64,000 nucleotides of DNA from Terriglobia bacterium (GTDB lineage Bacteria; Acidobacteriota; Terriglobia; 20CM-2-55-15). The DNA is taken from positions 1 through 64,000 of the forward strand of contig CAXWPJ010000005.1 in assembly GCA_963664115.2 (NCBI GenBank), in the 5' to 3' direction. The notes beneath the pieces were generated by a model. The model made no database searches. It was not told the origin of the DNA and saw only the letters and a program-made list of their open reading frames with translations. The first letter of the stretch is position 1. Each line of letters begins with the position of its first letter. Below, one piece after another: positions 8,463-59,022 of the stretch. The position numbers and the translations under genes are program-made.

Positions 8463-8501
8463 TCGAGTCCTGAGAAATCATCTTCTCGGACCTTGAGAAT
8501 T
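8463..8501 (+). repeat. Putative recombination site (pseudo-palindrome, ATCATC spacer)
   Basis: TCGAGTCCTGAGAA-ATCATC-TTCTCGGACCTTGAGAATT; starts 9 nt after the tail stop codon. Confidence 0.8.
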
Positions 8502-8573
8502 CATTGCCTGCTGTCCCACTCCTTCTATAGACTGCCCCCAGCCTTCTAAACACTGTTCTAGCAGCCCGTAATT

Positions 8574-11282
8574 ATGGAATCAGGCACGAAACTTGCGCAC
8601 TACGAAATTCTGTCCCCGCTTGGTAAAGGCGGCATGGGAGAAGTGTGGCGTGCGAAGGATACAAAGCTCGGTCGTGAAGTCGCCATCAAGACGTTGCCTG
8701 AAGAGTTCGCACAGGATGCGGATCGTCTAGCACGGTTCGAGCGTGAAGCTAAACTCTTAGCGTCGCTGAATCACCCAAACATTGCAGCCATTCACGGTTT
8801 TGAAGAAGACAACGGAACACACTTCCTTGTCATGGAGCTTGTTGAAGGCGACACGCTTGCTGATCGGTTGAAACGTGGTGCGATACCTGTAGAGGACTCC
8901 CTCAAACTAGCCCTCCAGATTACTGAAGCGTTGGAAGCTGCGCACGAAAAAGGCGTCATCCATAGAGACCTGAAACCAGCCAACATCAAAGTCACGCCCG
9001 ACGGGAAAGTGAAGGTGTTGGACTTTGGTCTCGCTAAGGCGTTTGCGGGAGATGAATCCGATGTCAGCGTGTCGAATTCACCCACGCTGAGCATGGCTGC
9101 GACCCAGCAAGGAATCATATTGGGTACAGCGGCATATATGTCGCCCGAACAGGCACGGGGCGAGACGACGGACAATCGTGCCGACATCTGGGCGTTTGGT
9201 TGCGTGTTGTTTGAGACGCTCACTGGGGAAAAGACGTGGACCGGGCGGACTGTCACGGACGTGATTGCGGCGTTGGTCGCCCGTGAGCCTGAATGGAAAC
9301 GTCTGCCTCCAAACCTGCATCCACGCATTCGGTTTCTTCTGGAACGCTGCTTAGAGAAAGAGTCCAAAGACCGACACCACGGCATTGACGAAGCGCGTTT
9401 GGAGATTCAGAAGGCCGTGGCTGAACCGGGTGTCGCATTGACGCAGCCCGTCGCGGGGCTTGCTCAACCGAGACCGCAGTCGAAACTACCGTCGGTTGCT
9501 GTATTCGCTGTGGGATTGGTAATCGCTGGTGTTGCCGTCTGGAACTTGAAGCCATCCGACCCACGTCCTGTCAGCCGATCAGAATATGTACTTCCAGAAG
9601 TCCGCAACTTTAGACAAACGGCGCGACCAGTCCTTACATTTTCTTCTGATGGCAGCAGATTCGTCTACAACGCAACGGGGGGGCTGTATTTGCGCTCTAT
9701 TGACGAACTAGAGTCCAGGGTCATTTCCGGAACGGAGGCCACGCTCGACAATCCGACTTTCTCGCCTGACGGTGAATGGTTAGCTTACTGGTCTGTAACG
9801 GACACTCAACTGAAGAAGATTGCCACTGTTGGCGGTGCCCCAGTGTCGTTAGCCGAGATTGCGGTCAGACCCTCTGGCATTAGTTGGGATGTGGATGATG
9901 CGATCTTGTACGGCGGGTCAGAAGGGATCATGCGTGTGTCTGCGAACGGGGGAGAGCCAGAACTGCTCATTCCGAATTTGGATGAAGGGCCCATTGTTGT
10001 GTATCCACACCTTCTACCCGATGGAAATGCCGTCCTTTTCGGGATCGCCGCTGGGCAGGTTGGGGTGCAATCACTCGATTCAGAAGAACCGCAGTTATTG
10101 TTCCCAGGAGAGCACCCTCGATATGTTTCCACAGGGCATATCATCTATTTCCAAGGGGGTGCGCTTTTCGCCCTTCCGTTTGACCTAGGGGCGCTGGAGG
10201 TAACGGGTGGGCCAGTTCCCCTAGTCGAAGGGGTTCGGGGGGGACCGCCGCAATATGCAGTGTCCGAATCGGGATCGCTTATCTACGTCCCAGGGGCAGG
10301 ATCAGACGCTGTTGCCAATGCGGTTCTTGCATGGGTGGATCGAAACGGAGCGCGGGAACCACTCCCCGTCCCGCCACGGCCTTATCGCCAACCGCAAATA
10401 TCGCCCGACGGGACGCGCCTGGCGGTTGAAGCCGTCGACGCCAGTGGCGACAGCGACATCTGGGTTTACGATCTCGACGGTAGCACGCAGATGAGACAAA
10501 TGACGGGAGAAGGGAACAACAGTCATCCCATCTGGACTCCTGATGGTGAACGATTGACGTTTGCCTCGGATCGGGACGGCCAGGTAAGAATCTACTGGCA
10601 ACTGGCCGACCTCAGTGGCGTCGCGGAGCCGCTGACCGAGCCCGAAGAAGGGCTGGAGCCAAGGCCGGACTCATGGGCCACCGATGGTCAGACTCTTGCG
10701 TTCACAAGGGGATCATCAATTGCCAGCGAGGGCGTATGGATATTTTCCCTCGATGATGGTGCCGTCACGGAAGTTTTCGCGGGGGGGAGCGTTCATCCTG
10801 GTTATTCTAATGCTGGTAGTCCTGCTTTTTCGCCGGACGGGCGATGGCTGGTGTATCGCAGGAACGTGGACGGCGAAGGCGGACAACTCTTTATGGAGCC
10901 GTTTCCAACCACGGGGACCGAATTCAGACTGACCCAGGACGGCGGGTCCGCTCCCATGTGGTCCCGTGACGGGCGGGAACTCTTCTACCGGCGGAATGCT
11001 CAGACGATTGCTGGGCTTGCAGCAGGAGCGCGGTCCCCGAACTTAATGGCTGTGGACATCTCACTCGAAGGCACACCGGAGTGGGGCAACCAGCGCGTCC
11101 TGCCGATTGAGAGTTTCCTGGTCTTCCAGGGTTCTGTGGACTACGACATCACTCCTAACGGCGAGCGATTCATCATGGTCTTCCCCTCAGACCAGACCGA
11201 ATCCGGCGAACCTGCCCGCCCCCGAATCAACATCGCCCTGAACTGGTTTGAAGAACTGAAGGAACGGGTGCCGGTGCCTTAA
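8574..11282 (+). CDS. Hanks-type Ser/Thr protein kinase with TM helix and TolB-like (PD40) beta-propellers
   Basis: [28 protein letters not shown]; repeated SPDG blades; ends NWFEELKERVPVP. Confidence 0.95.
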   Translation: MESGTKLAHYEILSPLGKGGMGEVWRAKDTKLGREVAIKTLPEEFAQDADRLARFEREAKLLASLNHPNIAAIHGFEEDNGTHFLVMELVEGDTLADRLKRGAIPVEDSLKLALQITEALEAAHEKGVIHRDLKPANIKVTPDGKVKVLDFGLAKAFAGDESDVSVSNSPTLSMAATQQGIILGTAAYMSPEQARGETTDNRADIWAFGCVLFETLTGEKTWTGRTVTDVIAALVAREPEWKRLPPNLHPRIRFLLERCLEKESKDRHHGIDEARLEIQKAVAEPGVALTQPVAGLAQPRPQSKLPSVAVFAVGLVIAGVAVWNLKPSDPRPVSRSEYVLPEVRNFRQTARPVLTFSSDGSRFVYNATGGLYLRSIDELESRVISGTEATLDNPTFSPDGEWLAYWSVTDTQLKKIATVGGAPVSLAEIAVRPSGISWDVDDAILYGGSEGIMRVSANGGEPELLIPNLDEGPIVVYPHLLPDGNAVLFGIAAGQVGVQSLDSEEPQLLFPGEHPRYVSTGHIIYFQGGALFALPFDLGALEVTGGPVPLVEGVRGGPPQYAVSESGSLIYVPGAGSDAVANAVLAWVDRNGAREPLPVPPRPYRQPQISPDGTRLAVEAVDASGDSDIWVYDLDGSTQMRQMTGEGNNSHPIWTPDGERLTFASDRDGQVRIYWQLADLSGVAEPLTEPEEGLEPRPDSWATDGQTLAFTRGSSIASEGVWIFSLDDGAVTEVFAGGSVHPGYSNAGSPAFSPDGRWLVYRRNVDGEGGQLFMEPFPTTGTEFRLTQDGGSAPMWSRDGRELFYRRNAQTIAGLAAGARSPNLMAVDISLEGTPEWGNQRVLPIESFLVFQGSVDYDITPNGERFIMVFPSDQTESGEPARPRINIALNWFEELKERVPVP

Positions 11283-11291
11283 TTTTCGAGT

Positions 11292-11320
11292 TCAAGTCAT
11301 CTTCCCGGACGTTGAGAATT
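11292..11320 (+). repeat. Putative recombination site with 10-bp internal deletion
   Basis: TCAAGTC[CTGAGAAATC missing]ATCTTCCCGGACGTTGAGAATT; 9 nt after the kinase stop. Confidence 0.7.
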
Positions 11321-11569
11321 CCCACCTAGAAATTCCGGACTGAAAAATCGGCGCCCATTCCTGACTAAGGGTCTAGGAGTCCCTTTCGATTTGGGTCCCA
11401 TTAAGGTTTGTTTTCTATGTACAGGGGGTCCTAACCACCTTGTTATGAATTTCGACTTCGCATTTTCGAAGTTAGTGGGACGTTTCTGGCCACGAAAAGG
11501 GGTATATAGCTAGAATTGTCAGAGCTTATGAGTCTCGAGATCGTTCTCTGGCTTTTGGCTTTCGTGTTT

Positions 11570-12954
11570 GAGTTATTGTCAAAAGTGGTGTTTAGGAGAT
11601 TGATTCAAGCGGCGGCCTGATCGACTTGTGTCGCTTCGACACCATCGTTGAATTTCACTCCGATGATTACCTTGCTCAGATCATCGAATCCTCGTAATCG
11701 TCGCCAATTGTTCTCAGCGCACTGGCCCAGTTTGAACATCATGTGCAGCATGCCATCCCGTGTCAGGCAACCTCTGGATCGCTTCGTTCGGTGTCGAATG
11801 GTGGCAAAGGTCGACTCAATGGGATTCGTCGTTCTGATGCTCTGCCAGTGCTTGGCCGGAAAGTCGTAAAAGGCCAGCAGTTCCTCTCTGTCTTTCTGCA
11901 GGCAGAGTGTGGCTTTCGGATACTTCGGTTCATAGGTTTCAATGAACAAGTCGAATGCCTTCTCGGCGTCTGCCTTCGTCTCGGCCTGCCAGATCGAGTG
12001 CAGGGCCTGTTTCGCCTTCGCCTGGACCGACTTGGGCAGGCAGTTGAGGACGTTCATGACTTTGTGCATCCAGCAACGTTGTTGACGTGTCTCGGGATAG
12101 ATTTCCTCCAGTGCGGCCCAGAACCCCATCGCACCGTCACCGATGGCCAACTTCGGAACATTCATCCCACGGGACTTCAGCTTCAACAAGACCTCGCGCC
12201 AACTCTGTGTCGATTCCCGTACACCGTCTTCGATCGCCAGGAAACGCTTCTCTCCGCGTTCATTCACGCCGATCACGACCAATGCACACAACTTGGTTTG
12301 TTCCGCCCGAAGTCCGCTGTAGATGCCGTCGGCCCAGACATAGACCCAGCGATCTGCATCCAAACGCTCCTCGCATCCGAGGCGGTACTGTTCGCCCCAA
12401 ACCTGTTTCAACCGCGATACCGTGCTCGCCGACAGACCCTGCGCCTGGGGACCGACAAGAACTTTTAGGGCCTCACCCATCTCGCCGCTGGAAACGCCTT
12501 TCAAATACAACCACGGCACCGCTGCTTCCAGCGACTTCGTCTTCCGAATGTACGGTGGTACCAGGGCCGATCGGAACGTCACAGCTTCGCCCGTCTTGGC
12601 ACGGACCTTCGGGATTTGGACTGTTACCGGACCCAATCCCGTCTGCAGTTCGCGTTCCGGCAGATAACCGTTGCGTACCACCCCGGCGTTTCCTGTCTCA
12701 GTTCGCCGGCCACCGTGCTGGGATAGCAGCTCTGCCAATTCGGCTTCCACTGCGCGTTGGATCAGTTGCTGTGCCCCAACTCGTAGTAGTTCTGTTACTG
12801 GATCCTCAATCGTTTCTCGACCTTCCGGTCCATTCACGTTACTCTTGCTCACAGTGGCGTATCTCCTATGGTTGCTTTGAAGTTTTGTCACAACAAATCA
12901 ACCAGATACGCCGCTCTTATTCAATCCCTCAAACACCAGATTCGGTTATAACTC
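11570..12954 (-). mobile_element. IS256-family element, copy 1
   Basis: Imperfect TIRs GAGTTAT...TGGTGTTT. No matching target duplication (flanks TCGTGTTT vs CGCTATGA). Confidence 0.88.
11605..12891 (-). CDS. IS256-family transposase
   Basis: RNGY, WADGIY, IGDGAMG, QRCWMH, RTTNPIES motifs. Confidence 0.92.
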   Translation of the reverse strand: MTKLQSNHRRYATVSKSNVNGPEGRETIEDPVTELLRVGAQQLIQRAVEAELAELLSQHGGRRTETGNAGVVRNGYLPERELQTGLGPVTVQIPKVRAKTGEAVTFRSALVPPYIRKTKSLEAAVPWLYLKGVSSGEMGEALKVLVGPQAQGLSASTVSRLKQVWGEQYRLGCEERLDADRWVYVWADGIYSGLRAEQTKLCALVVIGVNERGEKRFLAIEDGVRESTQSWREVLLKLKSRGMNVPKLAIGDGAMGFWAALEEIYPETRQQRCWMHKVMNVLNCLPKSVQAKAKQALHSIWQAETKADAEKAFDLFIETYEPKYPKATLCLQKDREELLAFYDFPAKHWQSIRTTNPIESTFATIRHRTKRSRGCLTRDGMLHMMFKLGQCAENNWRRLRGFDDLSKVIIGVKFNDGVEATQVDQAAA

Positions 12955-14193
12955 CGCTATGATATCTAATGGATCTAATTGGGATGATTCCAGCCAACAG
13001 GGTGCCGGAGGTGAAGATGGCAGATGACAGACTGCTTTTAACGATTCCAAGACGTTCCCAGCCTTGTTACGAGTCGGTCTGAACGGCTGAAGTCCATCTT
13101 TCGTTATGCATTCAGATACCTCTAGGAATAAGTAGATCGCGGCCTTAATTGTGTTTTCGTCCACCTCCTCATAGACACCTTCCTGCCGACGGTAGCGATA
13201 GAACACTCCGGCCTGATAGTGCAACGCTTGGATGCCGTCCACTAGGTAGTGGTGCTCGACGAATTTACGGGCACTGGGCATGGGATCCTGAGGATCGAGA
13301 ATCAGCGGCTTACCGTCGGAGCCAGTAACCGGAAGCCCAGGAACATCGGTCACGCCATGCTCAAGAAGGATCTTCCGCAGGGTACCCGCACCGATGTTGT
13401 CTGGACGGCCCGCCTTCAGCGAGCGCCAGCGTGTCTGATTTTTCGAAGCTGCGTTTCGATACTCTGGATCTGAAGTCGACCACGCATTGAACACTGATTC
13501 ACCTTGCCCCCGGGTGGCTTCGTGTGCTGCGGCCATGAGTCGAAACCAATCGTCGTGCTCGCGAAATTCACAAACGTCCAATCCGTTTAGCGCTTCCTCA
13601 AGCTGTTCGGGAGTCCACTCCGCACGACTGAGTTTCTTGCCACCAAGACGTCCTTTCCCGCCGGAACTCCCTTTCCTGATCAGCAAGAGAAGGCTTTCAG
13701 GCACCTGAGGAGCAGGGAAATTCCCGCCTAGTGAATCCCACTCGTACAGCTTCCCTTTTGGTCCCACGCTTCCGGAAGCCACGACTTGCGCACCAAAGGA
13801 CAGGAAATCAATTCCAGGGAGATCTTTCAGCGATCGCGACACTACCTCCCCCTCGGGAATCGAAAGGTACAAATGAAATCCTCCACCCGGGGTGTTAACC
13901 CGTGGACATTCTTCGAAGTCTAGGCCACACCGTTTTTTGAGTTCCTCAAAGGAGTCCCGCCCCTCTGGGAAATTTCTCGGATCGACGTCAATGACGAAAT
14001 CGATTGGACGTAGTCGCACCCCCACATTCCAGCCACGGACTTCTAAGTGTTCACGTGCTTCGACTTCGGTCAGACCAGCGACAGTGGTCCACCTCTTGTC
14101 GAGAGGCCTTTTCGACAGATAGCCTAACCGGATCAATATGTAACCGTTGACTATCAAGAGCTTCAACTGATCGAATATGGTTCTTGTAGTCAT
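12955..14193 (-). pseudogene. Bifunctional primase-polymerase / PriCT-2 / D5-like protein, truncated by IS256
   Basis: NVG...IDVD...TPGGGFHLY prim-pol motifs and W...WS PriCT-2 region. The reading frame runs into the IS256 end before any helicase P-loop. Confidence 0.75.
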
Positions 14194-17388: not shown

Positions 17389-17623
17389 GATTCCTTTATT
17401 AAGGTTAAATGGTGTTTCGTTCGACTCAGAGCTCCACAACGATTTAGCACGTGGGCTGCTCGCCTCGAGACATACTTGTATCCCAAAGACAACTCGAAAA
17501 ATATCAACTTTTGCAACTTCGTCTAGTAAAGGGGGGAAGCTCTGAATTACCGAGGAGGATCGTCTACAGCAGGTGTTTCTTCAAACGCACATCCGATCTA
17601 TCGCAACGGGCAGTTCTTGCAGC

Positions 17624-32339: not shown

Positions 32340-32503
32340 TGCATTGGTAACGAACAAAGCTCTTCATAAGCAATCGCGCCCCAATTGCCAAGAGCGGTAA
32401 GCCTAGATTTGTCAGCTGCCTGGGGGAACCCCCTGGCAGGAAGGCTTTTCGGGATAGCTTCGATTTCCAGTTAGTTGGCGACCGGACTGATGGTCTAAGC
32501 ACG

Positions 32504-32543
32504 TCTCAGTTTCCCCGAAGCCGACTTCTCGGGGGTTGAGATT
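32504..32543 (+). repeat. Degenerate copy of the putative recombination site
   Basis: TCTCAGTTTCCCCGAA-GCCGAC-TTCTCGGGGGTTGAGATT; right arm similar to consensus, left arm diverged. Confidence 0.4.
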
Positions 32544-37620: not shown

Positions 37621-37648
37621 AATTCTCAAGGTCCGCGAAGATGATTTC
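37621..37648 (-). repeat. Recombination site, 3' part (split by group II intron; 5' part at 39652-39666)
   Basis: Joining the flanks gives ATTCTCAAGTCCTGA|GAAATCATCTTCGCGGACCTTGAGAATT. Confidence 0.85.
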
Positions 37649-39651
37649 GTAGGGTCGAGCACTGGTGCGGTAACCCGTAGGCCACTCCTTGGCTGTATCC
37701 GGCGTTTCCGCCTTCGTGCCCGTTTAGGAGTGGCCGTAGCTCCGTTTCCAGCGCCCGCCACTTCGCACGCAGCGTGCGGATTTCCCGCACTACGCGCTCC
37801 TGCACACTTCGCCTCAAGGGTTATGAGACCTGTCGAGTGAAAGCGACTATGCAGAATGGCAGGAATAGGACACACGGTAGGCATTGAACAACCCCACCGT
37901 CCCATACAGCCAAGCTGCACTCCACCGCTTCCATCCGAAACCGCGACGCTGACTGGCTCGGGCCCGGTGGGACCGGATCTTCTTTTCAACCCAGGCGCGA
38001 ATGAACTGGAAGCATCCGCTGGAGTGACCAAACGCAAAGTAACGCACCCACCCGCGCAGGATCGGATTGATCTGCTCGATCACCCGATGGAGCGGCTGGG
38101 ACTGCGTACGCTTGAATATCTGATTGAGTCGACGGAGCAACGCGGTCCGCTTTGCTAACTTCGGCGTCCGCAATGCCATCCATCGTCCCCGGCGACTACG
38201 AACGCGCCGGAACTCAAAGCCGAGAAATCCAAAGCTCTCTCCCCGCGTCAGGTCCACCCGTCGGCTCTTCTCCGCATTCACTTCCACCTGAATCTTCGCC
38301 AACTCTTCCCGAAGTCGCTTCTCGACAACCTGCCGAAGCCACTGATACCGCGGATGCGCATCCACCAGGACCACCATGTCATCGGCATACCTGGCGTACT
38401 CGATACACTCCCGCTGCCGGTTCCGGGTAACTTGCTTAGCCCGCTCTAACATCCGATCGACATCATTGAGATAGATGTTACTGAGCAGCGGCGAAATCAC
38501 CCCACCTTGCGGCACACCCTGCTTCCCTGACGCCTTCAGCATCCATTTCAGGAGTCCAAGCACCTCCGGATCGCGGACTCTCTCGGCGACTTTCGCTAAA
38601 ACGATGGGGTGTTTCACCGTGTCGAAGTAGCGTCGCAGATCGAGATCGATCACGTCGGTCTTACCCTCAACGATGGCTCTGGAAACGCGCCCGATGGCAG
38701 CGTGTGCGGTCTTCTTCGGTCGATAGCCGAAGGATCCGGGTTGAAAGTCTGCTTCAAAGATTGGTTCCAGGATCAGCTTCAATGCACCCTGAACCACCCG
38801 GTCCCGGATCGATGGGATCGAAAGCATCCGTTGCTTGCCCCCCTCCTTGGGTATCCCCACCTTCCGGAGCCGTCCGGGTCGATATCTACGTTCGATCAGC
38901 TCCTCTCGAAGCTGGTCGAGAAACCCTTCCACGCCTGCGGCCTCAACGGCGTCAAACGTTACCCCATCGATTCCCGGGGCACCGTCGTTGGCCTTTGCCA
39001 ACCGGTACGCTTCCTGAAGCGTTTCTCGCTTTACCACGTGGATATACAACCCCCAAAAGCGCCAGGCCGGTTCGGCCTTCGCCTTGACGTATAGTCGTCG
39101 CCTCAGGTCTTGCAGACTAATGGGCGCATTTGTCATTTCACCCCTGCCTCCCGTCTTGGTTTCGACCTCATGTACAGCAGGGCCCCTTGGCTCCACGGGC
39201 GTTACTCCGCTTCATCGCTACTACGGACCCGGCCGCCACCGTCTCGTCTGCTCCCGACTTTCCGGTTGTGCCGGTTATACGATCGCTCCTGCTCCACCGA
39301 TTTCTCGATGGGACGAGGACGGTTTCTCCAGTTGCTCGGCATGTCCTTGTCACCGTGCTGCCCCTAATCACCCCGCCGGAGTGACAAGCCGCTTCGGTCA
39401 GATTGCGACATATCATGCTGCCTTCGCCCGTCCCAAGAAGGCTCGGCCTCCGGATCTACTCATTTCGAGGCCACCTCTAGGTTCACTTGCGTTGCGGCCC
39501 GGTGACTCACTCACCATCCTTTCTGATGGCTTTGTCGATCGGCTTCATCCGCTTCGTTTCCTCCACGGATGCGACCCAAGTTACAGAGTCTCTGACTCTT
39601 ACTCTGGTGGGGCTCTATCCCACTGAACATGCCAGCCTTAGCTGGACGCAC
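37649..39651 (-). mobile_element. Group II intron (about 2.0 kb)
   Basis: 5' GTGCG, 3' CTCGACCCTAC; domain V-like GAGCGCGTAGTGCGGGAAATCCGCACGCTGCGTGC after the ORF. Confidence 0.9.
37847..39133 (-). CDS. ltrA: Group II intron reverse transcriptase/maturase, no endonuclease domain
   Basis: GAPGIDG, IPSIRDRVVQ, SFGYRP, PQGGVISPLLSNIYL, YADD, NPILRGWVRYF. Confidence 0.92.
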   Translation of the reverse strand, partial: TNAPISLQDLRRRLYVKAKAEPAWRFWGLYIHVVKRETLQEAYRLAKANDGAPGIDGVTFDAVEAAGVEGFLDQLREELIERRYRPGRLRKVGIPKEGGKQRMLSIPSIRDRVVQGALKLILEPIFEADFQPGSFGYRPKKTAHAAIGRVSRAIVEGKTDVIDLDLRRYFDTVKHPIVLAKVAERVRDPEVLGLLKWMLKASGKQGVPQGGVISPLLSNIYLNDVDRMLERAKQVTRNRQRECIEYARYADDMVVLVDAHPRYQWLRQVVEKRLREELAKIQVEVNAEKSRRVDLTRGESFGFLGFEFRRVRSRRGRWMALRTPKLAKRTALLRRLNQIFKRTQSQPLHRVIEQINPILRGWVRYFAFGHSSGCFQFIRAWVEKKIRSHRARASQRRGFGWKRWSAAWLYGTVGLFNAYRVSYSCHSA

Positions 39652-39776
39652 TCAGGACTTGAGAATGGATTTCAGGGCACCGGCACCCGTTCCTTCAGTT
39701 CTTCAAACCAGTTAAGGACGATGTTGATTTGGGGAGAGGCCGCTAAGTCCGTTTGGCCTTCAGGTAACGCCACTAG

Positions 39777-47850: not shown

Positions 47851-47878
47851 ATTCTCAACGTCCGAGAAGATGATTTAT
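47851..47878 (-). repeat. Recombination site, 3' part (split by IS110; 5' part at 49337-49346)
   Basis: Joining the flanks gives TCAAGTCCTG|ATAAATCATCTTCTCGGACGTTGAGAAT. Confidence 0.85.
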
Positions 47879-47993
47879 TGATGGTATGGACTCCTCTTTG
47901 ATGACTGAGTCGGCATCGAAGTGCCAAAGTCATTTTGAGCCTCGCAATAAAGCGGGCGAAACACGTGTACGTGTGAACAAAAAGGAGTCCGAG

Positions 47994-49028
47994 ATGAAGA
48001 ATAGAACGATAGCAGTGGATCTGGCAAAGAATGTTTTTCAAATTGGTGTTTCAGATCGCCCCGGGCATGTAGAGAAAACCTATCGTTTAAGTCGGGCAAA
48101 GTTTCTGGGGTTCTTTGCGAACCAGGAGCTGGCGACCGTGGTGATGGAAGCCTGCGGATCCGCCCATTACTGGGGTCGGAAGATCCGGGAACTGGGACAC
48201 ACGGTCGTTCTGATCTCGCCGCAGTATGTGACGCCCTACGTCAGGCGCAACAAGACCGACCGTACGGATGTGAAAGGATTGTTGGAAGCCTATCGTGACA
48301 GCGATATTCATCCAGTGCCGGTCAAAACCCTGGCCCAACAGCAACTGACCTCATTGCATCGAATCCGTTCGGCGTGGATGCGAACCCGAACCGCACGGAT
48401 CAATACGGTGCGGGGGTTGTTACGGGAGTTTGGCTACGTGATCCCGACCGGAGCGGATCATCTGGTGCCGGGGGTAATGGAGCTGATCGAAGATGCAGAT
48501 GTCGTCATCCCCAGTGTCGTTCGGGAGATGTTTCACCAGGTGTGTGGCGAGATCCGTGAATTGGAATCTCGCATGCGATCGGTGGAACAAGAGTTGAAGA
48601 CGCTGGCTCGGCAGATGCCTGAGGTCGCGCGTCTGACGTCGATTCCCGGCATCGGCCTGTTAACGGCAACGGCAATGGTGGGGTTTGTTGGAAACATCAA
48701 ACGATTCCGAACGTCCCGCCATTTTGCCAGTTATCTGGGACTCACACCCCGGGAACATTCCAGTGGCAACCAGCGACGCATGGGCCGGATCAGTAAGCAA
48801 GGCGATCGTTACCTCCGGATGCTGTTGGTTCATGGGGGCCGTTCCCTGTTGTGGAGTGCCCATCGAGAGGGCGCCACACCGACACCTCTCCAGCAATGGG
48901 GTCTCCAGAAACACGAGTTCCGCGGACACAACAAGGCAATCGTTGCACTGGCCAACAAGTTGGCGCGTCGCGTGTGGGCGGTTTGGAACCGTGACTGTGA
49001 CCATCAGGCCCGGTATCAGGCGGCCTGA
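47994..49028 (+). CDS. IS110-family DEDD transposase
   Basis: AVDLAKNVFQ, MEACG, KTDRTD, IPGIG, GLTPREHSSG, ALANKLAR. Confidence 0.93.
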   Translation: MKNRTIAVDLAKNVFQIGVSDRPGHVEKTYRLSRAKFLGFFANQELATVVMEACGSAHYWGRKIRELGHTVVLISPQYVTPYVRRNKTDRTDVKGLLEAYRDSDIHPVPVKTLAQQQLTSLHRIRSAWMRTRTARINTVRGLLREFGYVIPTGADHLVPGVMELIEDADVVIPSVVREMFHQVCGEIRELESRMRSVEQELKTLARQMPEVARLTSIPGIGLLTATAMVGFVGNIKRFRTSRHFASYLGLTPREHSSGNQRRMGRISKQGDRYLRMLLVHGGRSLLWSAHREGATPTPLQQWGLQKHEFRGHNKAIVALANKLARRVWAVWNRDCDHQARYQAA

Positions 49029-49049
49029 CCCGAAACAGTCGGAATATCT

Positions 49050-49240
49050 TTTCAGCGAGCTGCGATGAGGTTCGAGATGATGGCGTACCGGTCAGACCGG
49101 CGCGGGGCAACGCCGACAAGTCCTTTGGCCCTTAGAGGCCGTTATTTTATCGGTTGGCTCCCCGCGCGCAAATTTCCATCATGGCCTGGAACAATACAGT
49201 TCCACTTTTGAGGCCGAAGATACGGGTGCAGTCGACTAGC
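49050..49240 (+). ncRNA. Putative seekRNA / bridge RNA of the IS1111-type element
   Basis: Downstream non-coding region contains CAAGTCCT and TTTAT (match target flanks) and CCATCA and AGATA (match IS ends). Boundaries approximate. Confidence 0.55.
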
Positions 49241-49355
49241 TACTCACCTCGTAACTTCTAGTCAGTCCTGCTGAATGCATTTTGCCGAAGAAAGCTGACG
49301 GGAGAGCTGCGCCTACTTGACAGAGGAGTCCAGATACAGGACTTGACCTCGAAAA

Positions 49356-49412
49356 TCAGGGCACCGGCACCCGTTCCTTCAGTTCTTCAAACCAGTTCAG
49401 GACGATGTTGAT
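49356..49412 (-). repeat. Orphan kinase 3' tail (INIVLNWFEELKERVPVP*)
   Basis: Followed after 9 nt by the site. Confidence 0.88.
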
Positions 49413-49637
49413 TACTGAAGGTTCAGCTCAAGCAGCGTTCCGCTCTGGTAGAAGGATCCCACCACGCCCAAGCAAGACTGTCCTCCTATGCCAATAAAGA
49501 GAATCAACGGTCGTCTAGCCGCATGCGGAAACAACAGTTCAGCCCTCGTCGTGGCACCCGCCCCGCCAGGGCGATCTTGAAGGACTGCTGTTCCTCCTGT
49601 ATCCAGATCCGCCCGCTGGTGGGAGAAACATCAATTC

Positions 49638-51701
49638 TCAGAAGATCTCCGGTACTGAAAACACCAGAATACCCTGATTGCGCATGTCGGAGACGATCAC
49701 TTCCTGATCTTCCGGGTTCAGAACCACTCCGAAAGGCTTCTTGAGCTGGGTTGTAGGGCCCACAGGGATTTTCCAAATCGGAGGAACATCCCCGTTATCA
49801 TCGTAACTCCAGACGCCTATAAACGCTTCCTCCGGTTCCATTTGATCTTGAATCCCTGGCATCGCGGCAATGATCAGCCTCCGCTGGGGATACATCTGCA
49901 TCTGGTTGATCCGGATAATTTCCGACTTCGGACCGCGGATAACAGCCCGTGGCGCTACGTTTCCTTCGTCCGTCCGGTTAAACACCAGGATTGCGCCTGT
50001 CTCCGAGTCACTTCTCCCTATGCTGGCCCTATAGGTTCCGAAGTTGCTCTGTGTTCCGACGACCAGAAGATCGTTGATCGGATCCACGGCAATCGCATGA
50101 AGTCTCCCCAACCTGGTGTCCGGGCCCTTGATCACTCGAATCGGTGCAACGTCACCGTTGGCTTCGCGCGGATAGACCTTAATACTGTCGTTGGTGTAGG
50201 TGAAAATCTCATCGTGAATGTTGTCCACGTCCAGCCGGTCGCTGATCGGCCCGGTTCTGGGGCCCTGGATAGTGCGAATGGGCGACTCCTGTCCATCGGC
50301 TCCTCCGGCGAACGTCAGTATGGCCTCTCCATAAGGGACAGGTACAACGATTTCATCGTTGACCGCGTCGTAGCGTATGTCATGCATGGTGCGGGACAGC
50401 CTGCTGGCCTGTCCATAGAGTGTTCGGACCGGTGTTTCTCCTCCGTCCGCCAACCTGGCGAACATCGCAATCTGCGGATGCGCCACTCAGTTGGGCACCA
50501 GGATCTGTCCCCGTCTGCTGTCGTAGCCAACGGCTCCGGGATTGCCGATCATGAGGCTCTCCGTCCCTACTGGCGCTCCTCGAATCGTTCTAATGGGTTC
50601 GACATCCCCATTGGCCGTCACCGGGAAAACCGTAACCGAGGGGGTTCCCATGCTCGCCACAAACAACTCGTCCAGTCGTTCATCCAGCGCAATACCAGGA
50701 GGATGTTGGATTCCGGTATTGGGTCCCGCGATGACGCGGATCGGAGCCACATCGCCTTCGGCCGAGGCGTCGAATATCAGTATGGAGCTGTCGGCATCAT
50801 TGGCCACAAACAGTTCCTGCCTTTCATTGTGCAGTGCCATGTGTGAAGGCCAATTCATTAACGTTCGAGGTCCTTCGATAGTCCGAAGAGGTGCCGTATT
50901 TCCTGAAGCGTTCAGGGGATACACGGTGATTGATGGCAGCTCAAAGCTGCCATAGGTTTCACCGGTCTCCGGATTCAGGTTTTGAGCATTGCCGAAATTG
51001 CTCACGTACATGAGATTGTTTGTCGTGTCCAGGGCAATCCCGTGCGGATCTTCCAGTTGCGTATCCGGTCCTTCGAGAGTCCGAAGTGGTTGTTCTTCAC
51101 CTTCGGCCTGCTTGCGGAACACATGCACGTAACCGCTCTGATTCACGACGAACAACTCCTGCCGTACTTCGTCCGCGGCAACGGAGAATCCACGAATGCT
51201 TGCCAGGAACCGATCCGGCGCGACGTTGCCCCGGGCGTCTGTCGAAAAAACCGGCAACCAACGCTGCGTATCATTGTTGAGCACATAGATGTCCAGGGTC
51301 ACCGGGTCAATGTAGACCCCACACATCATTTCGGCTTTTGTGTTGGTTCCCGAAATGACACGTCGGGGTTCTGTGAAACGGGCTTGAGGCGGCGTATCTT
51401 CGCGACTGTCATACTCCAGGATCTGAAACAAATTCTCGTCCGTGACCACCAGCATGTTGTTTTCGGAATTGACGGCCACGGCGCTAAACGCCGGATTCGG
51501 ATCTCGGATGAAACGCAGCGGAGGTCGCTCAATCACCACCGGCGTCCTGTCCTCCTGGCCCTGCACCGCCGTCACGGCCGCAGACGCAACCCCGGCAACG
51601 TCGCCGCTATCGATTAGAACGGCTTGAGCCATCCAGACGATCAATCCCGCTAAGACGAGCTGAAGTCGCCAACCTTTCCCGTCGCGAAAAGTTTTAGCCA
51701 T
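49638..51701 (-). CDS. Secreted NHL-like beta-propeller protein, probable selenoprotein (in-frame TGA 50487-50489)
   Basis: Repeats GxVAPIRxIxG...L..P.GIALD. Two abutting in-frame ORFs; TGA and downstream hairpin conserved in the paralog 53843-56008. Confidence 0.75.
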
Positions 51702-51857
51702 TGCTCAACCTCCAATGGGAGAACCCTTATGTACTTGAATATTGGCGCGATTATCAGAGGACCGATAATCAAAGTCAAGCGTATGGGCGAATGTGAAGAC
51801 TTTTGGCAACAAAGCAGGTGTGGGTATGTGACGATTCCAACGCTTGAGCAAGGGGGC

Positions 51858-51983
51858 TGGCAGGGTCTTGATCGCCACTTTACGCCCGAGCTTCGTGTCA
51901 CGAGCACGCCACACTTCTCCCATACCACCTTTGCCGAGGAGTGTGCCGATCTCGTAGTGGCCCAGTTTGGTGCCAGATTCCAT
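51858..51983 (-). pseudogene. Orphan kinase 5' stub ([12 protein letters not shown]...VAIKTLP)
   Basis: First 42 codons of the kinase family, then unrelated sequence. Confidence 0.85.
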
Positions 51984-52056
51984 CGTTATAGTGTGTCGCT
52001 GAAATACAGTGAAAAACTCTGCAAAGGATACTAAGGCAGGAAGTTAGGCGCTATTA

Positions 52057-52097
52057 AATTCTCAAGTCCTGAGAAACGACATTCTCGGACCTTGAGA
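52057..52097 (+). repeat. Recombination site flanking the recombinase (ACGACA spacer)
   Basis: AATTCTCAAGTCCTGAGAA-ACGACA-TTCTCGGACCTTGAGA. Confidence 0.85.
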
Positions 52098-52188
52098 CTT
52101 TGATTGGCAGCTCGACACAGCACGGCCGTATATAAGGCTCTCTAACTCTCTTAAGAATGTGTGGCTTCGCCTATTTTCCGGTGAATGG

Positions 52189-53229: not shown

Positions 53230-53272
53230 ATTCTCAAGGTCCGAGAATGTCGTTTCTCAGGACTTGAGAATT
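53230..53272 (-). repeat. Recombination site flanking the recombinase (ACGACA spacer), inverted
   Basis: 53232-53272 is the exact reverse complement of 52057-52097. Confidence 0.85.
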
Positions 53273-53346
53273 TAATAGCGCCTAAGTTCCTGCCTTAGTA
53301 TCCTTTGCAGAGTTTTTCGCAGCTTTTTCAGCGACACACTTTAAAC

Positions 53347-53529
53347 ATGGAATCTGGCACCAAACTCGGTCATTACGAGATCTCAACGCTTTTAGGTAAG
53401 GGTGGAATGGGTGAAGTGTGGCGTGCTCGTGATACCAAGCTCGGGCGCGAAGTTGCGATCAAGACTCTTCCTGCAGAGTTTGCGAAGGATTCAGATCGAC
53501 TCGCCCGGTTTGAACGTGAAGCCAAGCTG
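53347..53529 (+). pseudogene. Orphan kinase 5' stub ([12 protein letters not shown]...FEREAKL)
   Basis: First 61 codons of the kinase family, then unrelated sequence. Confidence 0.85.
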
Positions 53530-53842
53530 CGGATCAGCGGTATAAGCAGTGTCTGACGACTATGGCAGCGCTGTCAGTGTCGTCGTATGGGTGTTATGTC
53601 AATCCGGGTTCAGCGCTTGTACTGCCAGCGCCATGGCATGCCATTGGCTCAGGGTTACCGGTTGCCGCCAGGATGGCAGCGCTACGACCGGACCAAATTT
53701 CAAATATCTTTGCTTAGGTTAGTGGCGAGAGGGGCTAGAAGCCGATGTGTAAGGGGAATAATGAGATCGCCACCCCAGCGATGGGTGCGAACTCATGCCC
53801 CCCTTGATCATTTGGCAGTCAGGCGGGACCGGCCGAAAACTC

Positions 53843-56008
53843 CTAGAACAGCTCCGGCACGTGGAAACTCAACACTGCGTTCTGCTTCATGTCGGACACT
53901 ATGACCGTCTGGTTCTTCGGGTCCAGCGCCATGCCAAAGGGCTTAACGAGTACCTCACCGGGTCCGGCAAAAGTCCAGCGCGGTTCAATGTTGCCATCGT
54001 CTTCGTGGATGTCCCAGACGCCCACATGTGGCGCCTTGTCGTCCGGTCCTCGGATGGCCGCAAAAATCAAACCGCGCGGTGGGAAAACACGAAGCGCTCT
54101 GAGACCTGACAGCTCCGCCTTCGCCCCCCGGATGGACCTGAGGGGCTGCGCATTGCCTTCGGCAGTACGCTCAAAGATGAATATGCCGCGGTTGCCCCCA
54201 GTGACCAGCAGATCGTTGAGGGTATCGACCGCAACCTGCCCCTGGGCTCCCTCCAGAATACGGATCGGCGCCACATTGCCATTCGCCTCCCGCGGGAAGA
54301 CCAGGATTCTACCTGAGTCGGGAACCAGGATTTCGTTGTTAACCGGATCGACCACCATCTTGTCGGGCCGACGCAGCTGAGTCCGGCTGCCTTGAATCAC
54401 TCGCAGTGGAGGCTCTGCTCCATCGGCTCCGCCCCGAAACGTCATGATCGCCTGGGCAAACTGTTGCGGCACCACAACCTCGTCGTTCACCTCATCGTAT
54501 TCGATGCCGTGCATCGTTCGGCCCAGTAGTGTCGACTGTCCTTCGATTCTGCGCATCGGGGCAGCTGCTCCATCCGCCAACCTGGCGAAAGCCGCAATTT
54601 GCGGGTGGGCCACTCAGTTGGGCACTAGAATAGCCTCCCTCTTCGTGTCGTACGCCAGAGCTCCCGGATTGCCGATCATCAAGGCCCTTTGTCCCGCCGG
54701 GGCGCTGCGGATCATGCGAAGGGGGGGAGTGTCACCTTCGGCCCCCAGCTCGAAAACGGTCAGCGAATTATTACCGTAGTTGGCCACCCAGAGCTCTTCG
54801 TTCTTGATGTCCAGAAACAAGCCGACGGGGCTGTCCAGCATCGTTTGTGGCCCCTTCAACACTCGAATTGGCGCCACATCGCCATCCGCGTCGGACGTGA
54901 ACACCAGGATTGATTGCCCGGTGTCGTTGGCAACATACAACTCGCCGCGACGCTCATCCACACCGATACCAGAGGGCCAGTTCAACTGTGTCTTCGGTCC
55001 TACGATGACTCGCACTGGCGGCGCATCGCCGCTGGCGGAGCGCTCGTGGACTGTGATGGCCGGGGGCAAAAATCTCCCCGACCCGGGTACCGCCATGTTG
55101 CGTCCTAACGGTCGAGTCGGCTCCAGGTCATTCGCATCGGCTCCTTCAGCCGATCTGCTGGACACGTGCCCGTGGTTCGTTACATAGATCAGGTCATGCC
55201 CTTTATCGACGGCGATCCCGTGAGGGTTGGCCAGGCGGGTTCGGTCACCTTGCAGCAACCGGATCGGCGGCTCATCCCCTGACGCGAGCTTGCGGAACAC
55301 CACAACTGCGCTGTTGTGCTGGCTGGTCAGGAAGAGCTCCTGATTCTCATCATCCACGGCGATTCCACGCCCTCTGGTCGAATAACCCGTGTTCAGTTGG
55401 CGCGCAGGCGGCACATTCCCTTCCTGATCGCGGGAGAAAACCAGCATTTTAGCGGCGGTATCGGCATGGGTGGCGTAAATGTCTCCCGAGAGCGGATCGA
55501 CATACAGACCGCACACGAACTCAATCTCCGTTTGGTCTCCACCCAAGATCCGCTTTGGTTCAGTCAACGCCGCATTGGGCGGCGTATTCGCCGTTCGGTC
55601 ATACACCAGGATCTGGTGCAGGTTTTCGTCGGCCGCCACCACCTCGTTGCGGTCCGCGTCCACGGAGACGCCGCTAAAGCTGGGACTCGAATCTCGGATA
55701 ACCCGTACGGGATCCCTTCTGAGCCGCACCGTCCGAGATGGTTCCTGCAATGGGAACGCTCGGGCGCCCCCAACTCCCGACATGAGGAGTCCAGCCTGCC
55801 TCTGACCCGCTGCGGCAGCCGAAGCGGTGCTAGCGCTGCCCACCCGCCCTTCCGAAAGCGGTTGATAGCCGTTGAGCCCGGCCTCGTTGCCGGGCTGCCC
55901 CTTCTCTGGGTCCAACGCCGACGAAAGTAGGACCAGGGACAGGCTGACCATCGTGATACCGAGCACCGTCCGTATCAAGGTGCGGTTCGTTTTCGGTGTC
56001 TCAAACAT
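53843..56008 (-). CDS. Secreted NHL-like beta-propeller protein, probable selenoprotein (in-frame TGA 54614-54616)
   Basis: Paralog of 49638-51701 with the same ILVPN*VAHPQIA junction. Confidence 0.75.
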
Positions 56009-56146
56009 GTCTGATTCTCCGTGAATTCATATCCGACCAATTCCTACCGGATCATCCTTGTTGGCCTCGTGCGCCGTAACATAGGCTTCCAGCCTGTGAA
56101 TTCCAAACTTCGGGACGCAGCACTCAACGGTATTATACATTGCCAG

Positions 56147-56938
56147 GGCATTGTCAGGTTATGTCCCCAGCGTGCAGACTGACGGGATGAAGACGCGACG
56201 ATCCCGCTACATCAGGCACCGATTTCCTCCAGAGATTATCAGCCATGCTGTCTGGCTCTACTACCGATTCAGTCTGAGTTTCCGGAATGTCGAGGATCTG
56301 CTCGCTGAGCGCGGCGTGAACGTGACCTACGAATCGATCCGCCAGTGGTCCGTCAAGTTCGGAGCTCAGTATGCGCGTCGATTGAAACGACGCCAGGGGC
56401 GTCTCGGTGACACATGGCACCTGGACGAGGTCTTCGTCACGATTAACGGTGAAAGGCAATATCTCTGGCGTGCCGTGGATCAAGACGGTGATGTGATCGA
56501 TATTTTTGTTACAGCCCCGTCGGGATGGGCGTGCGGCGCGGAGATTCTTTCGGAAGCTGTTAAAGCATCAGGGAAAGGAACCATTCCGTCTCGTGACCGA
56601 CAAGCTGGGCAGCTACCGTGTCGCACATCGCGAACTCACGCCCCTGATCACCCATGATTCCCGCCAATATGCGAACAATTGGGCCGAGGTGTCACACCAG
56701 CCAACGCGACAACGCGAGCGACAAATGCGATGCTTCAAGTCGCCGGATCAGGCTCAGCGCTTCTTGCACGTTCACGGAGTCGTTCAGAATCTCTTTAGAC
56801 TGGCACGACACCGACTCAGGTCGGCTCACTATCGAATGTTGCGCACACGATCCTTCTCGACGTGGGCAGCCGTAACCACAGCGTGAGGTTTGCCTTCCCG
56901 GTCTTTTTCTGCCTTGCGCCAGCTAATTTCACAGTACC
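56147..56938 (+). mobile_element. IS6-family element with frameshifted transposase
   Basis: RHRFPPEII, WHLDE, YLWRAVD, VTDK, NNWAE split over two frames; ends GGCATTGTC / CACAGTACC. Confidence 0.8.
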
Positions 56939-56953
56939 CCCACGAGGGGGAGG

Positions 56954-58012
56954 CTACTGTGACGATTCCAGGAACCAACCCAGCTGTGCCTCGGCGCACT
57001 CACCGACGACGGTCAGATGACGCTGGACGGCTTCTGAGTCAACGAAGGGGTGCGGTTCGCCCGGGTTCCGAAATCGGAGACCGTTGACCTTGGCCAAGGT
57101 ATTGTCATGGTTCGTATGACTGGCCAGAAAGACATCAACGCGGGCCCTTAGTGCGATGTCTCGAAAACGCCGCGCCGAGGCGCTATAGATTGCTAGGCCC
57201 TCTGAACGCTCCGGCCAGTACCGGACCCCCATGGAATTACCTCCCCAGATGCTTCCCAAATGCCAGCGGTCTCCATCCTTGAGTGGAATCAAGGTCGATA
57301 TCGTCCCCGGGGTGTGACCAGGCGTGATATAGAGCGTTACGGTGGTATCACCCAGCGTCAGTTCCATCCCGTCCGTGGCCACCATGTCTTTCCTGGGCTT
57401 CAACTCTGGCGGACTGTTGTCGTTGGCTACGAGATTCCAATCGGCCTCAGACATGATGATGCGCGCTCCGTACCTGTCCTGGAGCGTCTTAGCTCCGTAA
57501 TAGTGGTCGGAATGGCCGTGGGCAATAATGACGTACTTGATGTCGGCCGCATCAAGCCCCATCTGTCGCAGTCCGTCGACGATTTCGTCCTCGACCATAT
57601 AGTCGTAGGCCGTATCGTGGAGAATAATTCCTTCCGAAGTCGTCACCGCCCACATCGCTAGGCCTTGGATGTACGATCCGTCAGCAAGAGTCATCTCATT
57701 GCTACCGATGTAATAAAGGTTGTCGAATATTTTATGTGGCGGTTCGTACCATAGTTCGCGCGGTGGAATCGTTCGGGGGGGCCGCGCAGCCGTCGGCGCC
57801 GCAGGCGGCCGAGCGGACGCATTGATGACGTTTCTAGAGAACTCTCCGCAATTCCTGTCGAATATCCAGGTGAAATCATTTCCAGGTGAGTATGCCGCAG
57901 CCTTGGCTGCGGCCTCATGACTTTCCGGTGTACCGGTCTGCGCGTTCGATTCAGTCGAAATCCAACCGCCTGCAAGCAGGATCGAGAGCACGGACGGCAA
58001 GTAGCGCTTCAT
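56954..58012 (-). CDS. Secreted metallo-beta-lactamase-fold hydrolase (subclass B3-like)
   Basis: PHKIFDNLYYIG, HGHSDH, TPGHTPG; signal peptide. Confidence 0.85.
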   Translation of the reverse strand: MKRYLPSVLSILLAGGWISTESNAQTGTPESHEAAAKAAAYSPGNDFTWIFDRNCGEFSRNVINASARPPAAPTAARPPRTIPPRELWYEPPHKIFDNLYYIGSNEMTLADGSYIQGLAMWAVTTSEGIILHDTAYDYMVEDEIVDGLRQMGLDAADIKYVIIAHGHSDHYYGAKTLQDRYGARIIMSEADWNLVANDNSPPELKPRKDMVATDGMELTLGDTTVTLYITPGHTPGTISTLIPLKDGDRWHLGSIWGGNSMGVRYWPERSEGLAIYSASARRFRDIALRARVDVFLASHTNHDNTLAKVNGLRFRNPGEPHPFVDSEAVQRHLTVVGECAEAQLGWFLESSQ

Positions 58013-58299
58013 GGATTCTCCCCCGTGTTAAGTCAGGATCAATGACGGATGTCGCAAGACTACCAGATACCCAATGGACGACAAAGCCAATCGTTTTCCG
58101 GCCCCTCAGGGAGAGCTTTGTCCAACTTGACATCGTCGTGACGGGTTGAGGCTCTTGGGTTGGCTGCTTTTCTCATCATGAGAGATCCAGCCTACCGGGT
58201 CTGGCGTCGCGATGAGTACTTCGAAGGTTCTGAACCAGAGGAACCAGTCCCTTGGGACCGGTTCACGCTGCGTGCACGAGGCGATGGGCGTCCGACCTC

Positions 58300-58343
58300 A
58301 ATTCCCAAGTCCCGATAAATCATCTTCTCGGACGTTGAGAATT
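58300..58343 (+). repeat. Putative recombination site (ATCATC spacer)
   Basis: AATTCCCAAGTCCCGATAA-ATCATC-TTCTCGGACGTTGAGAATT. Confidence 0.85.
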
Positions 58344-58479
58344 GGCGAGCAGAATTCCCCCGGAAAAATTCAGAAGCCGAACGACCCAGGGGTCGCCGGA
58401 GTCCCAAGCGATGGGCCCCCACTTTGAAGTCAAGCCACTCGCATGCCGTGCTTTGCTTTTCGGCACGCAAACTGCAACC

Positions 58480-58608
58480 TCAGTCAGCCTGCACTTTGCC
58501 TGGTACAATTTCGGTCGAATTCACCAGACATTGAGGGTCAAGCCCGCGATGGAAGTGGATATCACGGACCACATATGGACGTGGGAGGAAATCCTGGGAG
58601 ATAGATAA
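58480..58608 (+). pseudogene. C-terminal remnant of an IS1-like transposase
   Basis: LHFAWYNFGRIHQTLRVKPAME...DHIWTWEEIL. Confidence 0.6.
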
Positions 58609-58668
58609 CCGCCGCTTGATTAGGAATTACCCAACCGGATCGGTTCTGGCCCAGCTTTGGGCCAGCGT

Positions 58669-58869
58669 CTATGGCGTTGGAGGTATAAAAGTGACGCCAT
58701 TTCTTTCAATAAATATTTTCGGAGTCAATGGCGCACCATCCGAACAGTCTGCCCCAGAACTAACAATCACACCTTCACCCACGGTAATCAGAATGCACAC
58801 GGGCATTGAAGGGGCAATCCGCTCCTCCAGATCCTCTATCCGTACATCCAACTCGATGAATTCATCCAT
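58669..58869 (-). CDS. Small peptide with IEDLEERIAP leader-like motif
   Basis: AAGGAG RBS; acidic N-terminus followed by a hydrophobic region with two Cys. Confidence 0.6.
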   Translation of the reverse strand: MDEFIELDVRIEDLEERIAPSMPVCILITVGEGVIVSSGADCSDGAPLTPKIFIERNGVTFIPPTP

Positions 58870-58983
58870 GATCTGCTCCTTGGCGGGAACCCTATCATGG
58901 AGCCATCCAGACGGCTAGGTTTTCGGAAGAGAGTGTCCTAAGTGTCCCCGAACATCCCAGCATTTCCTCCGAATCTTCCCGGG

Positions 58984-59022
58984 TCAAGTCCTGATAAATC
59001 ATCTTCGCGGAAGTTGAGAATT
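58984..59022 (+). repeat. Putative recombination site (ATCATC spacer)
   Basis: TCAAGTCCTGATAA-ATCATC-TTCGCGGAAGTTGAGAATT. Confidence 0.82.

Follow-up and report, generated by a model that had tools for sequence, protein, structure and literature searches.

The locus considered here lies in a 64,000-nucleotide stretch of Terriglobia bacterium DNA (assembly GCA_963664115.2, contig CAXWPJ010000005.1, positions 1 to 64,000; hereafter, the window), where a tyrosine recombinase gene (52189-53139) is found among pseudo-palindromic sites of about 42 bp that separate units of one to a few genes. It raises the question of whether these sites take part in recombination, by which enzyme, and in what kind of system. 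A first-pass annotation considered the locus an integron- or shufflon-like platform. The sites very probably bound mobile modules. The system works like dif modules and is laid out like an integron, but it lacks the XerD arm and the alternation of the former as well as the IntI and attC features of the latter, and it is not an integron. The explanation preferred here, which is given a slightly better than even chance, is a dif-module-like cassette system whose duplex sites are recombined by a mobile and dedicated tyrosine recombinase of the family of 52189-53139. No description of this system was found in the literature covered, subscription journals and bioRxiv supplements lying outside that coverage.

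The Site and Its Two Spacer Classes

The consensus is matched in the window at 3 places with at most 3 mismatches, and at none in 100 shuffles. The whole genome (G000, 4.89 Mb in 12 contigs), searched with a profile built from all of it, contains 175 sites at a score of at least 18, as compared to 0 in the reversed genome used as control. The motif is present where it had first been noticed, with small corrections of coordinates: the pairs 37621/39666 and 47851/49346 are one site each, interrupted by a group II intron and an IS110 element, respectively; in the copy at 11292 most of the left arm is deleted; and the candidate at 37578 is too degenerate to score. The spacer is ATCATC in 129 sites (class A), whereas class B, with the spacer ACGAC., includes ACGACA (12 sites) and ACGACC (9 sites). 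As previously described, ATCATC is found at unit ends and ACGACA at the two sites flanking the recombinase gene. The conserved core, TCAAGTCCTGAnAA-N6-TTsTCGGACnTTGA, has a 14-6-14 structure, and the outer 4 bases are variable.

The sites form 49 clusters on 9 contigs, and clusters with at least two sites cover 362 kb. The idea of a local platform around the recombinase gene does not survive this distribution, and the gene is missing from two congeners that have 74 and 39 sites. The sites are indeed intergenic: only 11/175 lie within crude open reading frames (ORFs) of at least 150 amino acids, although such ORFs make up 80% of the genome. Among strong arm pairs the spacer measures 6 bp in 141/154, and a left arm is joined to a right arm at 149/150 junctions, which fixes the polarity of the site. 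Left-left and right-right hybrid junctions, sought as excision scars, numbered 0 and 1 doubtful, respectively.

The first-pass annotation likened the site to the attC hairpin with its extrahelical bases. The consensus does fold with one bulge per arm (-11.5 kcal/mol). However, when 17 pairs of this hairpin were tested over 165 sites, the paired fraction was equal to the shuffled value at every pair (39% versus 42% at one inner pair), and therefore sequence, not structure, is conserved. In difH, too, the arms are offset by one extra base pair, and one enzyme reads both of them on duplex DNA (PMC5241119); thus the one-base shift between the arms can be explained without a single-stranded form. 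The hairpin was consequently abandoned, and the site looks, from its sequence, like a double-stranded 14-6-14 tyrosine recombinase site rather than an attC hairpin. The structure-conserved hairpin without bounded cargo typical of REP/REPIN (repetitive extragenic palindromic) elements was not found.

Orientation of the Sites and Array Layout

Neighboring sites, counted when less than 10 kb apart, follow a strict orientation rule. In G000, A-A neighbors are direct in 78 cases and inverted in 5, and A-B neighbors are inverted in 35 cases and direct in 0; there are also 2 B-B neighbors and 6 A sites beside another spacer. The same grammar is observed in G002 (20 site-rich regions, 90 sites; A-A direct 42, inverted 1; A-B inverted 22, direct 0) and in G003 and G001 (7 regions; A-A direct 24; A-B inverted 13, direct 0). 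When the four genomes are pooled, A-A neighbors are direct in 144/150 and A-B neighbors inverted in 70/70. Two classes of site bounding mobile units, as first proposed, are therefore retained, whereas the analogy of A and B with attI and attC partners is not supported, as their spacers differ and they never form a direct repeat.

Outside the left arm of most of the 28 listed B sites, a TTGATA-like motif and TAGTAT, 17-18 bp apart, point away from the site. This pair may represent an outward promoter; the proposal rests on conservation, as a general sigma-70 scan did not call it. Genes beside A sites run left to right in about two thirds of cases and are reversed in about one third. The slot between A and B in which right arms face inward is mostly empty, and the linker then measures 16-17 bp (7 cases in G000) or 106 bp (4 cases). 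The layout of an array is thus B site, promoter-like pair, head module, A site, cassette, A site, and so on, up to a linker and the next B site. The short right-right linkers were also compared by eye with the recombinase unit as its possible remnants, and no resemblance was seen.

Recurring Modules and Their Cargo

In G000, a 1247-bp unit (99.8% identity) and a 347-bp unit (97%) each have a second copy elsewhere, with a site at either end and flanks that are unrelated; one further repeated unit differs on one side, and the other six whole-unit matches lie within larger duplications. Across species, a 673-bp unit is shared with G001 (90.5%) and a 486-bp unit with G003 (92.6%), again bounded by sites on both sides within unrelated surroundings; in several more matches, of 95-97%, only one end is at a site. 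For comparison with the 90-93% of these cassettes, core DNA near dif and xer is 72-83% identical across the compared species. The same module is therefore found in different contexts with its ends at sites, as dif modules are. Carriage of the sites by phages was considered and rejected, given 0 exact matches in viral contigs.

Cargo was surveyed in 16 array regions, where 138 of 162 non-repeated ORFs were run against Pfam. These include 12 MBL-fold hydrolases, 6 DUF6152, and 4 GNAT proteins, together with NHL, ankyrin, and alpha/beta and amidohydrolases, and many ORFs are without match. The C-terminal end motif of a kinase-PD40 protein occurs 125 times, 65 of them within 70 bp of an intact site and only 7 with a long open frame, and 26 of 39 N-terminal starts are within 250 bp of a site. 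As these end stubs recur with dispersed inner breakpoints, kinase-PD40 modules that were hollowed out and refilled are the apparent source of many cassettes; a second crossover at one set position within the kinase ends was rejected because of this dispersion. In the window, the kinase stubs point away from the recombinase on both sides, as originally reported. A sequence starting CGGATAAGCG follows four kinase stubs at different codons (window 53539 and G000 C2:776087, C12:509424, and C1:103978) and may be the terminus of a small element responsible for the hollowing of kinase modules.

Other cargo deserves mention. Two direct A sites enclose an additional gene for ribosomal protein S1 (L290:1969-3510, corresponding to G000 C2:256972-258510), the regular rpsA being elsewhere; the additional gene is 97% identical in G004 and 80% in G001, and was not found in G002 and G003. 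The arrays also hold a second rpoD-like gene, the only rsgA match, and one rluA-like match. At window 49638-51701(-) and 53843-56008(-), each ORF pair forms a single beta-propeller frame interrupted by one in-frame TGA, located in the same motif (ILVPN-TGA-VAHPQ), and both products are candidate selenoproteins.

The sites are themselves targets of other elements. IS110 is inserted at the same left-arm base in 7/9 left and 10/13 right junctions. Its downstream non-coding region contains AGATGAT and CAAGTCCT, which match the two sides of the target in order (1/2000 shuffles), as expected of an IS110 target-binding loop (PMC11208160). Two close relatives of the group II intron are present in G002 at the same site base in other cassettes, and three more distant ones in G004 are not at this base. 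In addition, G000 carries six identical two-gene elements, consisting of a tyrosine recombinase and an IS91-like transposase, at CCGGTT/GGTTAGAAC-like motifs (C1:93031, C1:108490, C2:196556, C12:36165, C12:159013, and C12:487092), most of them 25-200 bp from an intact or damaged site. Their integrase was rejected as the driver of the sites, being not found in G003.

The Recombinase Family and Associated Site Dialects

The catalytic set of the window recombinase is intact (R164, K191, H261, R264, H287, and Y296). The protein scores below every NCBIfam cut-off, with 61 bits against 265 for the integron integrase model TIGR02249 and 60 bits against 267 for the XerS model. Its K-to-HxxR distance is 71 amino acids, as compared to 107 in the IntI-like protein of G000, in agreement with the initial remark that there is no IntI insertion and no classical integron.

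The family comprises at least 8000 clusters, is present on 7 plasmids, and has homologues in 42/201 genomes of the class, a tally which includes the unpublished G493. A profile trained on homologue flanks and cross-validated scored at least 15, with the right arm inward, in 40/167 held-out flanks, 0/167 reversed ones, and 1/101 distant controls. The linkage of the recombinase family to this kind of site is thus supported, and the proposed co-occurrence of site and enzyme holds at the family level; it does not hold genome by genome, since seven site-rich genomes have no intact copy.

From the homologue flanks a second site family emerged, TG.cGaaA-N6-ATT.CACTCA, with the spacers ATCsCs and CAGGCn. 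In 18 chosen loci there are 136 such sites (control 0), with A-B neighbors inverted in 64 cases and direct in 3, A-A neighbors direct in 22 and inverted in 2, and 18 mixed B-B neighbors; the recombinase gene is often between an A and a B. In a tree obtained by quick search, 31/32 enzymes flanked by family-2 sites fall within one clade (SH-aLRT 98; 59/94 rows unlabelled). Upstream flanks in the clade of the window enzyme have family-1-like sites (those of the window type) in 8/21 and family-2 sites in 0/21, flanks of other enzymes in 6/60 and 27/60, and controls in 4/113 and 8/113, respectively, counts whose weight is lowered, to the detriment of the dedicated-recombinase explanation, by kin that are not independent and by a family-2 profile partly trained on recombinase loci. 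One helix, presumably the recognition helix as in XerD, reads TPKVIW in one clade and SQNVVW in the other. Both site families occur 40-600 bp apart in three hosts and share TCA/TGA outside the 11-bp core, which dif does not have; neither contains a XerD arm.

A third dialect, AAGTCCTGATAA-GTCGCn-TTACCGGACAAG with ACGCGn partners, surrounds a 64% homologue at L044 (323-7436). No site above control was found at the plasmid homologue of Granulicella tundricola pACIX905.

Distribution and Read Depth

A pattern search of 61 genomes gave 126 matches in G000; four congeners had 74, 39, 10, and 2, four genomes from another genus had 1-4 each, and the remaining 52 had 0; with a looser pattern, no further genome among 401 of the phylum exceeded 2. 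An integron-integrase-like gene with the IntI insertion is located at G000 C9:714590-715759 and has relatives in G001 and G002. A simple pattern revealed no attC within 10 kb of it, and it was rejected as the driver because it is 195 kb from the nearest site and not found in G003.

Read depth was obtained from the Logan contigs of six runs (X1, X2, X3, X5, X6, and X7), which over 1-2.7 kb show 0-1 differences. Depth at the recombinase unitig is 4.6 versus 19-25 for its flanks in X1, 5.1 versus 15-20 in X5, and 3.7 versus 6.6-7.2 in X6. The resulting ratios are 0.2-0.3 in X1 and X5, about 0.5 in X6, and about 1 in X2, X3, and X7; they are not equal to shares of cells, and strain mixture accounts for low depth as well as excision does. 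Low depth is shared, in X1 and X5, by the unit that follows 58301. These data suggest that the recombinase gene is not obligatory and that an assembly may fail to include it. Contig breaks at sites are expected for any repeat and were left out as evidence.

Proposed Mechanism and Alternative Explanations

In the preferred explanation, sites with like spacers would recombine and sites with unlike spacers would not, giving two channels. A crossover between directly repeated A sites would release a cassette as a circle, which could be reinserted at any A site, while a module between inverted A and B sites would be exchanged by two crossovers (A with A and B with B). B sites would be the heads of arrays and the source of the outward promoter. 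In homologues, the recombinase gene occupies the space from a tail A to the following head B. Lying between two B sites, the recombinase gene of the window would be invertible. Arrays without such a gene would be orphans, or would be served during the passage of a recombinase module. The role of 52189-53139 as the acting enzyme, its chemistry, and its present activity are presumed.

Several observations weigh against this explanation. G002 (74 sites, 2 contigs, 97% complete) and G003 show no trace of the recombinase beyond XerC/D-level matches, G001 has only a broken copy, and no homologue at 1e-40 was found in G237, G207, G227, and G366, which have 24, 9, 8, and 8 exact family-2 matches, respectively; the seven genomes without an intact homologue hold 8-74 sites each. 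At strict thresholds, 59/94 homologues have no site, nor have five genome loci with 61-69% homologues. The circular or inverted junctions that had been suggested as a check were not detected: Logan contigs at 97% likeness contain no circle, inversion, or deletion joint at the unit, and the joints at 90% likeness were short-sided repeat artefacts. Furthermore, directly repeated xrs cassettes of Acinetobacter did not excise in tests (PMC11705084). XerC and XerD, both confirmed in G000, are the only tyrosine recombinases common to the seven genomes compared (based on all 12 loci of G003 and 30/58 matches in the other five genomes), and the right arm agrees on average at 8.8/11 with the XerC arm predicted for Ellin345 (PMC3025954).

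The last two points favor an explanation that is considered rather unlikely, namely, that the sites are targets of the host XerC/XerD, as in the chromosomal dif modules of Acinetobacter, and that the recombinase gene is a passenger or has an unrelated role. It is also consistent with the 11-6-11 core with two non-equivalent arms, with the reverse complement of the right arm, ACGTCCGAGAA, which is 10/11 identical to the dif XerC arm in G573, with the resemblance of the family-2 B spacer CAGGC. to the host dif spacer CAGGTA, and with the serine recombinase passenger of an Acinetobacter dif module (PMC12907356). On the other hand, the right arm matches the XerC arm of G000's own dif (ACGTCGCATAA-TGAGTA-TTATGTCAAGT, near the skew turn) at only 7.0/11, and either arm matches the XerD arm TTATGT at 5.0-6.0/11. 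The first dif pattern missed five genomes, of which a relaxed one recovered 3/5. Two extra dif-like sites in G002 (C1:478201 and C2:3627229, one near a phage-type integrase), possible insertions of the IMEX (integrative mobile elements exploiting Xer) type, retain canonical arms, and two dissimilar site families occur in one host lineage and track recombinase clades. A mixed pair is improbable; in it, host XerC would act on one arm, and the other would be served by the encoded recombinase or by an accessory factor. XafT is said to be an accessory factor of this sort for the TLC phage. In its favor, each family has one XerC-like arm and a second arm without likeness to that of XerD, and the strict polarity would suit two proteins; yet both family-1 arms resemble that of XerC, shifted arms can be read by one enzyme alone, as XerH does at difH (PMC5241119), and arrays without the recombinase gene would still be unexplained.

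Very little credence is given to an integron-like recombination of single-stranded hairpins, analogous to attC, by 52189-53139 or by the IntI of the genome. The bulged fold, the targeting by IS110 and group II introns known also for attC, and the IntI-like gene of G000, G001, and G002 would agree with it; the pairing at the shuffled level, the lack of both the IntI insertion and GTTRRRY/RYYYAAC ends, and the remoteness of IntI do not. Least credible is a selfish repeat like REP or MITE (miniature inverted-repeat transposable element), or a transcription factor operator, unrelated to cassette movement. The sites are genome-wide, intergenic, and in high copy number restricted to a genus, as such repeats would be, but two conserved spacer classes, an absolute orientation rule, shared cassettes ending at sites, the missing hairpin covariation, and the occurrence of sites at gene ends as well as starts are hardly compatible with it.

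Comparison with Known Systems

The dif modules of Acinetobacter are the closest relatives in terms of function (PMC13141974, PMC11705084, and PMC12907356). In both systems modules are bounded by sites with a 6-bp spacer and two non-equivalent arms, like arms face inward (C and D modules), partners are set by spacer match, insertion sequences (IS) target the sites, and chromosomal islands of modules exist (PMC12907356). In Acinetobacter, C and D modules lie between inverted sites, undergo spacer-matched crossovers, and are exchanged via cointegrates, direct-repeat modules (CD) being the exception (PMC13141974). Here, direct-repeat units are the majority; alternating inverted sites are limited to the 70 A-B neighbors, as against 144 direct A-A ones. 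The 11-6-11 site has a XerC-binding arm by sequence match only, and a XerD-binding arm is absent. Further differences are the 14-bp conserved core per arm, only two fixed spacer classes tied to orientation, the promoter-like motif at one of them, a recombinase family tied to the sites, and about 175 sites per chromosome. XerH/difH (PMC5241119) and XerS/difSL similarly have longer arms, a 6-bp center, and a one-base arm shift on duplex DNA, but they are single chromosome-dimer sites, whereas here a separate canonical dif exists with XerC/D.

Integrons and CALIN (clusters of attC sites lacking integron-integrases) share with the present system direct-repeat site arrays, cassettes of one to a few genes, a head promoter, orphan arrays without enzyme, and site-targeting IS110/IS1111 and group II introns. 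However, IntI insertion, attC ends, and structural conservation are lacking here, cassettes have either orientation, and the head site is inverted and heterospecific. Instead of an attI and a promoter beside an integrase with the array in cis, there are 27 B sites, many clusters, and one recombinase gene. In shufflons (Rci/sfx), a tyrosine recombinase lies beside several asymmetric sites. The recombinase unit bounded by inverted sites with identical spacers is reminiscent of them, but the sites are dispersed, mostly direct, and intergenic, and no gene ends are swapped at one locus. The available part of a classification of tyrosine recombinases (PMC8138268) does not mention Acidobacteria. The system is a variant of site-bounded module systems and possibly a class of its own.

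Features of the Window

The sites and units of the window are collected in Table 1. The spacer GTCGGC of its weak site also occurs in other site families of the class.

Table 1. Sites, cassettes, and inserted elements of the window.
Feature	Position	Strand	Basis
A-class site, spacer ATCATC; kinase C-terminal stub just before	8459..8500	+	profile
Full Ser/Thr kinase-PD40 gene, cassette between two directly repeated A sites	8574..11282	+	
A site, left arm mostly deleted; intact right arm 11302-11319	11289..11319	+	
Weak site, third spacer class GTCGGC	32502..32543	-	profile
A site split by group II intron	37622..39665	-	
Group II intron in left arm of A site, 2003 bp; reverse transcriptase 37847-39196	37649..39651	-	
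A site split by IS110-family element	47851..49350	-	
IS110 that targets the site; transposase 47886-49028, followed downstream by a non-coding region with two guide-like site matches	47879..49336	+	
Head module: promoter-like motif, kinase N-terminal stub (51983 down), beta-propeller cargo, kinase C-terminal stub (49340-49413)	49337..52057	-	
B-class site, spacer ACGACA; right arm towards recombinase	52058..52099	+	
Simple tyrosine recombinase, 316 amino acids, core-binding and catalytic domains; single copy in genome	52189..53139	-	
B-class site, spacer ACGACA; right arm towards recombinase	53230..53271	-	
Head module: promoter-like motif, kinase N-terminal stub (53347 up), beta-propeller gene, IS6 remnant, MBL-fold hydrolase	53272..58300	+	
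A-class site	58301..58342	+	
637-bp unit between two directly repeated A sites	58343..58979		
A-class site	58980..59021	+	

The window also contains an integrated element (12946-28063) with two integrases (17624-18820 and 19044-19940), a primase-polymerase, AlpA, and a SAM-I/IV riboswitch match at 26649-26766; no sites are inside it. Tandem duplications are present at 30764-31033 (about 134 bp) and 33289-33655 (about 184 bp), and high-copy IS families, with dozens of near-identical copies genome-wide, at 4264-6120, 11570-12954, 45059-46215, and 59600-62398. Positions 1-11221 are duplicated (99.9%) at the end of contig C9, by contig overlap or segmental duplication, and multi-cassette blocks are common to C2 and C6/C11.

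Significance

It is tentatively proposed, with somewhat less than even confidence, that this is a third prokaryotic gene-cassette platform beside integrons and dif modules, with two heterospecific duplex channels, its own traveling recombinase family present in a fraction of cells, lineage-specific dialects across Acidobacteriota, and an age sufficient to have acquired parasites of its own, namely, IS110 and a group II intron. A recombinase whose sites are clade-specific and whose two spacer channels are naturally orthogonal would be a candidate for cassette-exchange engineering. Either the principle of dif modules applies outside Acinetobacter as well, or a separate principle is at work here. 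Integron and pdif searches were not built to detect such a system, which would explain how a large accessory gene pool, in clusters of about 360 kb in G000 with hydrolases, MBL-fold enzymes, beta-propellers, and kinases, is assembled and exchanged in a widespread and barely cultured phylum.

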